From assembly GCA_964016885.1 (NCBI GenBank), contig OZ024740.1, positions 412,114,001-412,178,000 on the forward strand: a stretch of DNA of 64,000 nucleotides, written 5' to 3'. Positions 1,730 through 62,890 of this stretch are shown here, in pieces (position 1 is the first letter of the stretch; every line of letters starts with the position of its first letter). This DNA is from Eledone cirrhosa. Taxonomy: Eukaryota. The translations under genes were made by a program, and so were the position numbers. The notes below the pieces were generated by a model. It ran no database searches, was not told the DNA's origin, and was given only the letters and a program-made list of their open reading frames with translations.

Positions 1730-1808
1730 TAATTTCGCTGATGAAGTTTCCTGGGAAATGGATTGAAATTTTGAAACTGAAATACATGTTAGACATATTT
1801 GAAATTAC
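1730..1808 (+). ncRNA. Hammerhead-like motif
   Basis: CTGATGA (1738-1744), helix II AGTTTC/GAAACT, GAAA (1779-1782), near-palindromic TACATG, then TT. Helix I forms only distally (TAATTTCG/TGAAATTA). Confidence 0.55.
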
Positions 1809-4800
1809 TGTTATTCTGTTGCTTTCAGTCCCAGAGTATTTATTCTTCATATTTATTATAATACATTTGAACACATTATTTTGTTGGAATTTTACGACCT
1901 ATCATTGGTGCATCTCCACACTAAATAAATTAAACGAGCTAACATCAATAAACGAAAAGGTGATAAACTACTTCTGGGGAAATATTAACTAAGATGTATC
2001 TAAGAGAAAAAAAAATCTTACAAACTCATTTACTGAGAATAGCTGGTTTTGTAAATTAGTCTGCCGGTGTATATGTATCACCCAGAATAAATGCAATCTT
2101 TGATTCAGTAAACAGAAAACAATTGGGATATTTTTGTAAATTGAAACAATATTCTCCTGAAAGATCTTTGGTTTTTCGGCATCAATCGATAAAACGAAGA
2201 AATTAGAAGACAAAAATAATAACAAGAAATTGGTGAAGTCGACATGGGGAAAAACTGAACAAATGAGTTTTAGAGTGTACCGAAAAATAAAAAAAATTAT
2301 TCATGATTTCGCCAATGAAAAACAGGGAAGAAAAAAACCACTCGTTAACAATGTTTAGTACTAACACATTTCTCTGGAATAATGGCTGTCTAATTCCTAA
2401 ATGAAAAAATAAATATATATATAGTAAAACTCATAAAAAATAACACGTAAGCTAGAATACATATATTGAATCTGTAGAAATAGAAAACAAATGTTCAACA
2501 GAGAAGAACGAAAATATACAGAAAATAAAGTAAATGAAGCAGAGAGATACCTTGCATGCGACTCGTGATAAAGTTGTTTTTGCCAATATTAGTATTAGCC
2601 ACTATGAAGAATACGATTCAGATATTCTTATACACCGTGCCAGATTCAGGGTGAGATGCAGAAATAAGAATACAAAAATAGCCTCAACAAAATTATGTAT
2701 ATCGAGCCAAAAGATATTTTAGATATAATCCTATAATTTCAGCTATATATTATCTTGTAAAACAGCACCGATAGCAGTATACTTTATAGGCTAAATAACT
2801 GAATATATTCCTGGAAAGGAATCTGGGTAAAATGAAGTGTCTGAATTGATTCCTTTTCAAAACAAATATGAAATAGTGACAATGTTTCCAAATGAATAAA
2901 AAATAAGAAATATCAATTACTTTCTGGAATGACCGTTTAAATAAGGGAAAACTATAATTAATTAAATAGACCTAGAATCTTATTGAGATGTTCATCGTTG
3001 TCAGTGGACAAAAACTAATATGCCCAAAGTGAATTCTGAAATATTGTTTTGGAAATTCGAATATACCTCGCTCTAAATTTGTCACTCTCCATAATTTAAT
3101 AATGTATAAATTATGTTGGCAAAATGCTATTTATATATCGGTGAGAAGGACACAACCATAGGCAACTTGCCAGAAACATTCTGTTGTCCATACATTTTGA
3201 TTATTCTCTAAAATAAATGTTTTGAAGTTATAATCTTGTCACCGATTCCATTGTATCACAGACAATAGTCAATGATAAACCCGAGCTCTAATGTTGCGAG
3301 TGACACACACCTACATACTACATACGACCAAACTCATACACATTTGTTGGCCTTAAATTTATCTGTCTTACATTCGTTGTCATTATAGAGCGATATACGG
3401 TAAACATTTTGATCGAGTTCTTATTGGGTTTCACATATGTATGTAAGGGATTATTACGTCGAAGAATGTTTCAGAAAATATGAGAGCAAAACAAAAAAAC
3501 ACTTCCATTCATTATTATTTAACTACTCATATTTCTATTGTTTCACCATTGCATACCTCAGGCAGATATTTCATTATTCAGTACGTTGGCCGTCTTTGTT
3601 TTGTGGTTCTCCACAATGAACTATGCGCAACGATTGCAGCAAGGAAACGGCAGGAAATCGGTACGGCCATATCAGGCGTTTTGTCGGTTTGACACACTGT
3701 CATTATTGTTTTGAAGCAAAGGAAACACGTTTGATTACATAGGTAGTAATAGATAAGAAACGTATATTTTATCATACAACAGACAATATACGGCCACCAT
3801 TGTAATTACTTGGGACAACCTACCGAGTGTAAATACGTGTCATTCAATTGGTACGAAATGGAATAGCTATCTTTCTAACCACCCGAGAGAATATATGTTT
3901 AACTGTTATTTTAAAAAGGGCAATTGACTTTAAAATTATATAGATTCAGATTCCATGTTTATCTAAAGTATTCAAATATTTTCCAGTAATATAGATTTCT
4001 GTTATCTTTACTTACGTACACTAACATTACAATTTAATGATATAAGTTAAGAACTATCAAATTATAGAGTAAGACATTAACATTTCTCTATTTCCAGAGC
4101 ATAACCGATAAATTCTCCCCTTATATTTGTAACCACATACTTTCAAAAATAAACCTAACCCCACCGACATCTACTCTCAACTAGTGACACTCTGATTAAT
4201 TATGAAATAATATATATTACGTACATATCACATATTTTGATATTAGAATATATAGTCGGCCAGGTAAACATTATATGCTCATTATTGAAGATTAATTAAA
4301 CGTTAATAAGCTGATTTGCCTACCAGTGTATCTCTAGACAGTACACTATATTTGAAATAGCCATGAATGTCCTGTTCTTTTAGGTTTAACTTCAAGGAAG
4401 CCATAACCATTTGGCTATTTGCATACTACTAATATTAACCGTGGTAGTGAATTCGCTTATAAATTAACATGTTTACAATGTATATCTATATAGAAATATG
4501 AAAGGATTTAACCGAAGAGGATATAAATGTATGTAAATGCATATATCTCACAATTTGGGAGGCTACGGCATATATATGATTCGTTAAGACGTAAAAGGTT
4601 TACACAACTTCTGAAAATGTTACATAAATCTAATTAAGCAACTGTAAACAAAATGTTTGGACAGAAAATTCAGATATGGTAAATGGGGGTACATTTAAAG
4701 GAAGAAAATTTCTCCCTGCTCATACTTTGGGAAAATGAATACATATTTAGGTTTCGGAATTACATTAGCTTTGTGGAGAAGTAAAATGTGAGATAGAATT

Positions 4801-5018
4801 GAGATGAGAGTAGGTTATATAAGTACTGTGTTCATGCTTGGATAACATTTATATCGGAATGTTCTTGGTCATAGCTGTTGACTTTTAAAACCTGAAGTTT
4901 TGAGAGACATGTAAAATATTAAGTAGTGAGTAACAGAGAGTATGTCGGATACGTCTAAGGGGTGCTTTGTTCGTCGATATGTGTAGCCTCTATGTCCGGG
5001 TGCCTGGGTCACCTTCAA

Positions 5019-60410: not shown

Positions 60411-60466
60411 TTATTCTGATGAAATGACAGTAAATAATAACATTGAAATATTGAATGTCTGCATAA
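60411..60466 (+). ncRNA. Hammerhead-like motif in the PLE pseudo-LTR (copies at ~57482-57537(-), 40635(+), ~40250-40305(-))
   Basis: CUGAUGA-AAUG..CAUU-GAAA-UAU-uga-AUG-UC; helix I is weak. A second half-motif, GAAA-CACGUG-UC, lies at 60515-60526. Confidence 0.6.
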
Positions 60467-62890
60467 CTAAAACTTTGTAGATAGCAGCTGTTTTCAGGTT
60501 ATGTAACTGTTATAGAAACACGTGTCAATAAATTCCTTTCAACTAAACTGTATCCATTCAAATCTTTCTATTTTTCTCCGGATTACTTTTGGAACTACAA
60601 CTGGAACCGTAGAGCAAACTCTACGTGAGCCTCAATCTACTGTGTGTAATATTTATATTACAACACAACGGAAAATACTGTATATATATATATAACATTA
60701 AAAGTTAGTCAAAATCTCGATTGAGTGAGTACACACGAGTTGATATCTGTAATTGAGATGAAACATTCGAGAAAGATGACTTTCTGATTCATGTAACAGT
60801 CTGATGAGCTTTTGATTCCAGAGTCGGGCCCGATCATTACAGATAAAAACTTGAACTGATACATCGCAAAATCTGCGTCACGCCAGAATGAATTTTCTGA
60901 AAATTCGACAGCTCGTCCATCATTATATATATATATATATATATATATATATATATATATATATATATGTGTGTGTGTGTGTGTGTGTGTGTGTGTGTGT
61001 GTGTGTGTATGTGTGTGTGTGTGTGTGTGTGTGTCCTGTGTGTGTGTGTGTGTGTGTGTGTGTATAATTGTTGACTTAGTACGCACACGTTTTTCTGCTC
61101 TTAAAGTGTTAAGTTCCTTCCTCTTCCTATCACTACTTTTCTACTTCAACTGTTATATCTCATTTTATCTTTTGAAGGACTAGTTTCCGAAACGTAAAGA
61201 CTCCTTTTCTTATTATATCAAGTGTTACACTAATATATTTCTTTATGGTACTGTCTTATTTGCATTCATGGTCCTTGAGCAAGCGGCTTTTTTTCCAGGA
61301 CGACCATTAAAGAATGCACATGTATACACTCTAATCATATATTTGCCATGTTGCCCAGAAATAGTAAGAAGCAAGCAAAAATGGCTGTTGGAGGCTGTGA
61401 GCATTGACGTCCCTATACATTTGGGGCACTCCTGGAAACATATAGCCGTCTATTCTCTTTTGAATTAAAGGTCTGAATGTCATGTGTGGTGATATCCTTA
61501 ATGATTTTATATGTATCTCCACACATTGTTACCTTGTTCAGTATTTGTGTCAGTTTAGATATGATGTTCCGCAATCTCCAACAGTCTGTTTGTGTTTCCC
61601 ACTTAGTTCAATGAGCGACATATCTTTTCGTTTATGAATCTTCACTGTCAGAAAATTCGGTGAGTGTGTGGTTAGTTTTAGTTGAATTTGTGTGTCTGCT
61701 TGATATTTTGTTGTAAAAGTCTGGATTTTGTTATAGAGATTTGTGGGTTGGTTGTGTTAATGTTGATATCGTTGGTGATAGTTACGGTGTGGATGTTTGA
61801 GTTGATGGTGTTTCAGGTGTGTCCGTATTAGATTTGTCGGTGTGTTTTCCGAGTTATATAGAGTGTGGTTTGTGGTGGGACAAATATTTTGGTTTGGAGA
61901 ATTCCTCATCTTCCCTGCGAGAGGAGGCAGCTGTTTCTGATGAATCAGATTCCGATGGTAATGGGTGGGCGATTGTGCGAGTGACTGTCTATGTGTTTGC
62001 AAGACGCGGAGATAGGAAGAGCTATATTGGAAGATGCCCATTTTGGATTTGTTGTATTATTTTCTGTTATTTTTCTTCTTCATGGTGCTAGTGGTGGCAG
62101 AGTTGCCGCTACCACTGCTGTTAATGTTACTGATTGTTATTGCTGAGATTAGTGTGTTGCTGTTTTCGTTGTTGTACATCGATAGTGATGTTGCATTTGT
62201 TGTCGTTGGGGCTATTGTTTTGCCGACAAATCCACTTTACAAATAAAACAAATATATGTTCTGTACAGTCAACTACTATCAATCCTGAACGCATCGTGTT
62301 ACTCTTATTTATATCCTTATAGAATACGCTTTTTAGATAACATCTAGATGACCAATGCGATTTGATCATGTTGCCTTTGAAATATTCGATAAATGTAGTA
62401 CGTACCTGGCAGAGAGATGGAAATGCCTGTTCATTTTTTTTAGGATTTTACACCTTCTCCATTATCTGCTATCCCACTTTAATGGATGAACTTTCGGAAG
62501 TCTCCAATTGTATTGGAGAATTTCAGTATTAATTTGTTGTACCTTTATTGCTTGGCTCAGGACTAAAGATCTGTTAAGGTGAAAACCTGTGGAAACACAC
62601 GCCTAGCATTGAGCAAACACCCTGATCACCGTTAAGGAACATTTGATAATAATATTAATTTCATTCATATGTATAAAAGAGAGTATACGTTGCTACAGGT
62701 GTTACAAATGCGAGCTGTTACCTGAAAAGAATAACAAGGATACCAGTAATAAACTATACACACATACATATATATACATACACACATACATATATGTATA
62801 CATGTATGGACACATACATATATACTTACAAACATACATAAATATATAAATATTTGTATGAAGGAGTGTATGTTTTGTGTATGCATATAT

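Follow-up and report, generated by a model that had tools for sequence, protein, structure and literature searches.

Hammerhead ribozymes of Penelope-like elements (PLEs) follow the consensus 'GAAAN Palind NUH', with a palindrome in the place of helix III, and have been described together with a model in which they act as dimers (Cervera & de la Pena 2014, PMC4209133). The model is restated in PMC6765202 and PMC6466107, both of which cite Lunse, Weinberg and Breaker 2016, and for axolotl retrozymes dimers are reported to cleave far better than monomers when the motif has a palindromic tetraloop (PMC7229834). Here we analyze the hammerhead motifs in a 64,000-nucleotide stretch of the 3.0-Gb genome of Eledone cirrhosa (contig OZ024740.1; G000:C1:412114001-412178000), hereafter called the window. 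In our assessment it is highly probable that these motifs are type I hammerheads in the pseudo-long terminal repeats (pLTRs) of many PLE families, and that their short palindromic helix III allows strand exchange between two copies, which would then cleave as a double hammerhead.

Common to these motifs and the metazoan PLE hammerheads of PMC4209133 are type I topology, the location in pLTRs, the palindromic consensus, the U3-A8 core variant, an extra base before helix II, the prevalence of solo or opposite-strand copies, the proposed dimer, and an odd-length interrupted palindrome (in its Hydra row). Unlike there, palindromes of 6-10 nt outnumber the 2-nt minimal form, helix II extends to about 100 nt, and the density is very high. 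The small PLE hammerhead variants of Lunse 2016, as related in PMC6765202 and PMC6466107, likewise have a palindromic short stem III loop, occur in tandem and cleave as dimers; dimer cleavage is proposed for our motifs as well. The Poseidon PLE of Anolis (PMC11167929) likewise harbors a hammerhead in the pLTR of an element encoding a reverse transcriptase (RT) and a GIY-YIG endonuclease; there, cleavage was assayed and found to require the element protein without being needed for insertion in vitro. Metazoan non-LTR retrozymes are tandem units of 300-500 bp with type I hammerheads (PMC7229834; bioRxiv 10.64898/2026.07.22.740005). Such arrays occur in three genome samples (L068, 11 x 310 bp; L022; L074); the window contains no tandem hammerhead array with a few-hundred-base unit, its copies being, unlike retrozymes, dispersed or inverted pLTR pieces. 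In literature searches that left out most subscription papers, work on hammerheads of this kind in the animal group was not found.

Hammerhead families and the sequence of helix III

The window and 139 evenly spaced 10-kb samples of the genome (1.454 Mb in total; L-numbers denote stretches examined beyond the window) were scanned with a descriptor blind to helix III, composed of core, helix II, GAAA, 0-12 free bases, UH and helix I. It returned 160 type I hammerhead matches, with helices I and II flanking the core and open at helix I, as opposed to 5 in the reversed-sequence control. Grouping of 159 matches without the use of helix III led to 47 clusters, 45 of which have at least two inserted bases. 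A first descriptor with helix II limited to <70 nt missed the motifs at 41107 and 60519, a strict contiguous-stem descriptor yielded 30 matches of which none lies inside the window, and the Rfam hammerhead models gave no match at gathering score in the window. The Rfam models are likely to represent canonical forms only, and their null result was not counted as defining. A single AT-rich tandem repeat is the source of the L108 matches (6-7 short, 5 long), which are probably false and remain in the counts as non-palindromic.

In this helix-III-blind test palindromy was enriched above chance, as the first-pass annotation had proposed. Twenty-two of the 45 clusters are self-complementary by Watson-Crick pairing (16 of even length, 6 of odd length with one central base) where 1.8 are expected, and 30 are when G-U pairs are allowed (4.5 expected). 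Among the 15 clusters present in at least two loci the corresponding numbers are 9 (0.76 expected) and 11. Control slots further downstream were self-complementary in 0-1 of 45 clusters. At the level of single matches, perfect palindromes of at least 4 nt were found in 76/160, compared with 0/5 in the reversed control, and 98 of 150 sample copies are self-complementary if G-U pairs and odd-length palindromes are counted. Twelve different palindromes occur as cluster modes. A 'family code' was rejected as a full explanation, TATATA being the mode of three clusters and CGATCG that of three others.

The annotation itself had been based on twelve hand-picked sites, all of which contain the listed string, although those at 17833 and 38383 are actually on the minus strand and the latter is preceded by GCAA rather than GAAA. 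If a complete motif is defined by core (CUGANGA or U3-A8), helix II, GAAA, UH and helix I, five of the twelve qualify (17833, 23654, 26630, 41107 and 60519). Six others (11615, 23137, 27011, 38383, 38957 and 61193) are copies of real families that are damaged or reduced to a half, recognized via intact relatives in the genome samples. The TACATG at 1783 is unsupported: 1.39 Mb of samples contained no relative of it, and a helix I is missing in that register. Could chance and selective reading in AT-rich repetitive DNA account for the list? Bare GAAA-N(2,4,6,8)-TH sites, the comparison suggested at the time, are palindromic in 126/891 cases in the window (72/218 for 2-nt inserts), so that a hand-picked list alone proves little and an unbiased test was needed; moreover, the list held half-motifs and omitted counter-examples. 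For the overall pattern this explanation is refuted and scarcely credible, given the blind scan with its reversed-sequence and downstream-slot controls and the tracing of nine sites other than 1783, plus 26630 and 41107, to multi-copy families; for 1783 it holds.

The statement that helix III is "nearly always" self-complementary was too strong. In the window it is palindromic in 10 of 13 intact-core copies and in 5 of 8 families, the non-palindromic intact-core copies being 1318 (GAGC), 10935 (long hairpin) and 35738 (a damaged copy of a GAAC family). Counter-examples at 1318, at 51236 (GAAC) and at 10935, whose long helix III is of the monomer type, had been overlooked.

In the families examined in this respect, hammerheads are placed in sense just downstream of PLE-type open reading frames (ORFs). 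An inverted insertion at about 57249-60782 contains two arms of a PLE-like ORF, and the CACGTG motif at 60416 is in sense, 860 nt past the end (59556) of an ORF of the type combining RT with a C-terminal GIY-YIG domain. A Pfam search with this ORF itself gave no useful match, and its homolog P0002 showed weak RVT_1 and GIY-YIG matches below cut-off. Remnants of PLE-like ORFs were found in 23/139 samples. The inverted arms, the one-ended tail and the (TA)n targets match the PLE structure described in PMC8557442.

Pairing of two copies and its alternatives

The central bases of helix III are the most informative ones with respect to mechanism. Both inner pairs are of the Watson-Crick type in 17/32 even-length clusters (background, 7.6%) and complementary with G-U in 24/32 (background, 15.8%). 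As a monomer hairpin constrains the outer pairs only, inner-pair complementarity points to dimers. In nearest-neighbor calculations, which include neither magnesium nor tertiary terms, 4-6-nt palindromes cost +2.4 to +6.0 kcal/mol when folded as monomer hairpins, compared with -3.2 to -11.2 kcal/mol for the self-duplex, and the probability of the A15.1-U16.1 pair in monomers of nine window matches was 2e-5 to 0.04. Thus, a single copy is predicted to be unable to hold helix III while a two-copy duplex is predicted to be stable.

These data also bear on a monomer model, according to which helix III consists of a looped stem of 1-3 bp that is held by protein or tertiary contacts, its palindromy having no function. 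Such a model would accommodate the abundant class without a palindrome (G-RR-C, see below), the long-helix-III families that fold as monomers (L049, P 0.69) and the Anolis PLE hammerhead, which cleaves only with added protein (PMC11167929). It leaves the central four bases free, yet these are self-complementary far above background, and its helix III is predicted to be unstable; we therefore regard it as unlikely.

The helix III sequences TATATA, TATGTA, TACGTA and TGCGCA look by eye like a related series, and a G-U form such as TATGTA is present in 10 of 24 copies of one cluster (cluster 0). A related palindrome series that includes a G-U form fits pairing at the RNA level. By contrast, the palindromes might be binding or endonuclease sites for proteins acting on DNA. 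Several are typical dyad sites, CACGTG being an E-box, and inverted structures are common in the elements. This alternative appears highly improbable because twelve different palindromes occupy the same ribozyme slot and because amplified variants relying on G-U pairs fit pairing of one RNA strand but not a DNA dyad.

Based on these considerations we favor the double hammerhead for the palindromic families. A pLTR-ORF-pLTR transcript or a tandem array would carry two identical hammerheads, which might swap strands by pairing through helix III and helix I; the element's protein would probably assist pairing or cleavage, and a unit-length RNA would be cut out. That cleavage takes place in the dimer we infer from published work. 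In L009 two same-strand copies lie 3,388 nt apart around ORF pieces, and this arrangement is the expected source form of the dimer.

Several observations weigh against this reading. Helix III is not self-complementary in 50/150 sample copies, and the clusters share ancestry so that nominal P-values (1e-20, 1e-9) are too small, the effect being large nonetheless. The active dimer is predicted to beat two free monomers in only 8/9 window matches and 8/22 cluster representatives. Only 22 of 159 matches (11 of them from one 310-bp array) are accompanied within 5 kb by a member of their family on the same strand, as opposed to 77 solo copies, 54 with only an inverted family partner within that distance and 6 doubtful ones from L108, and these partner counts are too low in that the 10-kb samples cut off some partners. 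Exact-pattern searches of the whole genome for intact-core G-RR-C copies returned 27,484 matches with a purine-purine center (AA in 22,133) and only 471 with a pyrimidine there (first base, 200; second base, 271), reversed-pattern controls giving 1-4. When 13-80 nt were allowed for helix III, 15 matches were obtained compared with none in the control; five are those of L108 and the other ten fall into three families. With respect to published assays, minimal-hammerhead dimers show low cleavage in vitro (PMC4209133), and insertion of the Anolis PLE in vitro does not need the hammerhead (PMC11167929). Given the low dimer activity and the protein-requiring cleavage reported, tandem copies or RNA concentration, on which cleavage had been suggested to depend, may not suffice. 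Taken together, the earlier dimer proposal is supported by the central bases and the predicted monomer instability for palindromic families; it does not hold in general, since a palindrome is missing from one very large family and the long helix III of some others folds in the monomer.

Families outside the palindrome rule

The G-RR-C class and the long-helix-III families are exceptions to the palindrome rule. In the window the former is represented by an intact-core copy at 1318 (GAGC), a truncated one at 51236 (GAAC) and a damaged one at 35738. The first G-RR-C family, with 32 copies in window and samples, comprises GAAC (22), GGAC (6), GAGC (2) and other sequences (2), and the only amplified subfamilies of the class are GGAC and GAGC. 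Two GAAC families differ by two compensatory helix II pairs and share GAAC, which amounts to two events, not many. Sampled copies are located about 230 nt past ORFs of the RT/GIY-YIG type that bear a YIGET motif. One such ORF in L170 (2156-4912, minus strand) is unbroken over 919 amino acids and combines RT and YIGET, with a weak RVT_1 match (E 0.0009) below cut-off; it is preceded by an open frame of 369 amino acids (4831-5937, minus strand) and followed about 220 nt downstream by a GGAC hammerhead. This element is probably a young PLE, and recent activity of G-RR-C elements is suggested by the adjoining ORFs and the one that is unbroken over 919 amino acids.

The G-RR-C duplex was calculated at +2.4 (GAAC), -1.7 (GGAC) and -0.4 kcal/mol (GAGC), compared with +5.6 kcal/mol for the monomer. 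Cleavage would require a dimer with tandem purine mismatches or the help of a protein. It is tempting to speculate, though we consider it rather doubtful, that the class is an active double hammerhead with a tandem purine-purine mismatch at its center (A.A/A.A, G.A/A.G), and that this weak non-Watson-Crick interface makes cleavage dependent on a dimer of the RT-endonuclease. The purine-only center could be partly mutational since A-to-G transitions are commoner than transversions, and the motif may be a dead hitch-hiker; the family of 38383, which carries GCAA, multiplied although its core is apparently broken. Inspection by eye of about 400 nt upstream and 300 nt downstream revealed no distant strand pairing with GAAC and covarying with GGAC. 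Literature searches, which did not reach Lunse et al. 2016, brought up no non-palindromic dimer class, and among the alignment rows of PMC4209133 examined, supplement file 1 not included, none has a G-RR-C helix III.

Among the long-helix-III families, the one that includes 10935 has 1,118 matches genome-wide, and the best fold of 10935 is the monomer three-way junction. In L049 the probability of A15.1-U16.1 reaches 0.69 in the monomer. Two further U3-A8 families with a long helix III have a 17-nt near-palindrome or a 22-nt hairpin (L017, L030, L106; L069, L081). A "CCCAAA" cluster was discarded as read in the wrong register; it is actually a long-helix-III family.

The GCAA family (U3-A8 core, GCAA for GAAA) is represented in the window at 38331-38583 and in L042, L103, L114, L074, L069 and L070, with 28 BLAST matches, and GCAA is found in most displayed relatives of 38383. 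Judged by these sequences it apparently spread with a broken catalytic core while keeping CCGG.

Copy arrangement and features of the window

The nearest same-family pairs on the same strand are 17-20 kb apart in the window. RNA transcribed across an inverted pair would be double-stranded, likely hiding the ribozyme. As most copies are solo or inverted without a same-strand partner, and transcripts of the inverted ones are likely duplexed, most are probably relics; those of the window, mostly solo, inverted or truncated, are likely inactive in place. The features are listed in Table 1.

Table 1. Hammerhead motifs, their remnants and associated ORF parts in the window
Positions	Strand	Feature	Remark
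1314..1356	+	Counter-example of the G-RR-C class, intact core	Non-palindromic GAGC
1738..1790	+	Core-like string with TACATG, unsupported	Relatives and a helix I in register both absent
10930..11056	+	Counter-example, U3-A8 hammerhead with long non-palindromic helix III	Monomer three-way junction fold
11509..11628	.	Inverted pair of 3' half-motifs (CTAATTAG)	Core/5' half removed by an inversion; relatives elsewhere are intact
17827..17864	-	Complete type I hammerhead, U3-A8 core, helix III CCGG	27 BLAST matches span the motif
23128..23165	-	3' half-motif, CGATCG	Ends at (TA)n tract
23402..23472	-	Complete hammerhead, helix III TGCGCA	Forms an inverted pair with the motif at 23607
23599..23669	+	Complete hammerhead, helix III TGCGCA (23654-23659)	8-bp helix I
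24943..25006	-	Complete hammerhead, helix III TATATA	Forms an inverted pair with the motif at 26590
26582..26645	+	Hammerhead, helix III TATATA (26630-26635)	Eroded, weak 3-bp helix II
26979..27028	+	Damaged copy, core CTTATGA, broken helix I, helix III CATTGGTG	Relatives have CATTAGTG
35734..35775	+	Second GAAC family, core and helix II intact	Helix III damaged in this copy
38376..38414	-	U3-A8 motif, GCAA for GAAA, helix III CCGG	Likely catalytically dead family
38950..38995	-	3' half-motif, CAATTG	Ends at (TA)n tract
40189..40305	-	Complete hammerhead, long helix II, helix III CACGTG	
40630..40746	+	Complete hammerhead, long helix II, helix III CACGTG	
40989..41122	+	Hammerhead, helix III CGATCG (41107-41112)	99-nt helix II region
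51210..51249	+	Counter-example, 5'-truncated G-RR-C copy	GAAC
57418..57538	-	Complete hammerhead, helix III CACGTG	Left arm of inverted PLE insertion
57575..59182	-	PLE-like ORF, 3' part	With what we take to be a YRDD RT motif, a Cys-rich linker and a GIY-YIG-like end
59017..59556	+	Second arm, endonuclease end of the same PLE-like ORF	860 nt upstream of sense hammerhead at 60416
60411..60531	+	Complete pLTR hammerhead, helix III CACGTG (60519-60524)	92-nt helix II
61165..61201	+	Copy of minimal (CG) family	Core deletion

Many families, among them those of 40997, 60416, CTAATTAG and 27011, show a C.A or A.A apposition at the helix II base instead of the usual G10.1-C11.1 pair, and insertions of 50-115 nt in that helix. 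The minus arm of the PLE insertion is without about 845 nt that are present in the plus arm (59394-60239), and the junction at 57707-57735, a short duplicated repeat, suggests a template switch. The array in L068 (281-3381, minus strand) consists of eleven 310-bp units, each with a CGCG hammerhead, and is retrozyme-like; smaller tandems are present in L022 (467 bp), L049 (522 and 600 bp) and L074 (528 bp).

The window has a GC content of 32% and is rich in (TA)n microsatellites and repeats. A non-LTR RT fragment in two frames (14152-16414, plus strand; RVT_1, E 8e-28) is situated between very long (TA)n tracts, and copies of a short interspersed repeat, abundant and without relation to the hammerheads, lie at 18565-18701, 30947-31161, 42774-42968, 53671-53855 and 54696-55144. 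Extrapolation of the approximately 155 net matches in 1.454 Mb leads to roughly 3e5 type I hammerheads genome-wide, for which 1.5-3e5 is the safer figure because the same extrapolation exceeds the exact G-RR-C count about twofold. For the axolotl, 126,247 hammerheads were reported (PMC7229834).

The dimer mechanism is already published for PLE hammerheads. Our main claim restates this feature and thus adds examples rather than a principle; new here are the families and one testable exception. With dozens of families differing in helix III, this one genome represents a panel for studying dimer specificity and protein assistance, and its abundant non-palindromic class allows a test of whether the spread of PLEs depends on the palindrome rule, or on cleavage at all.

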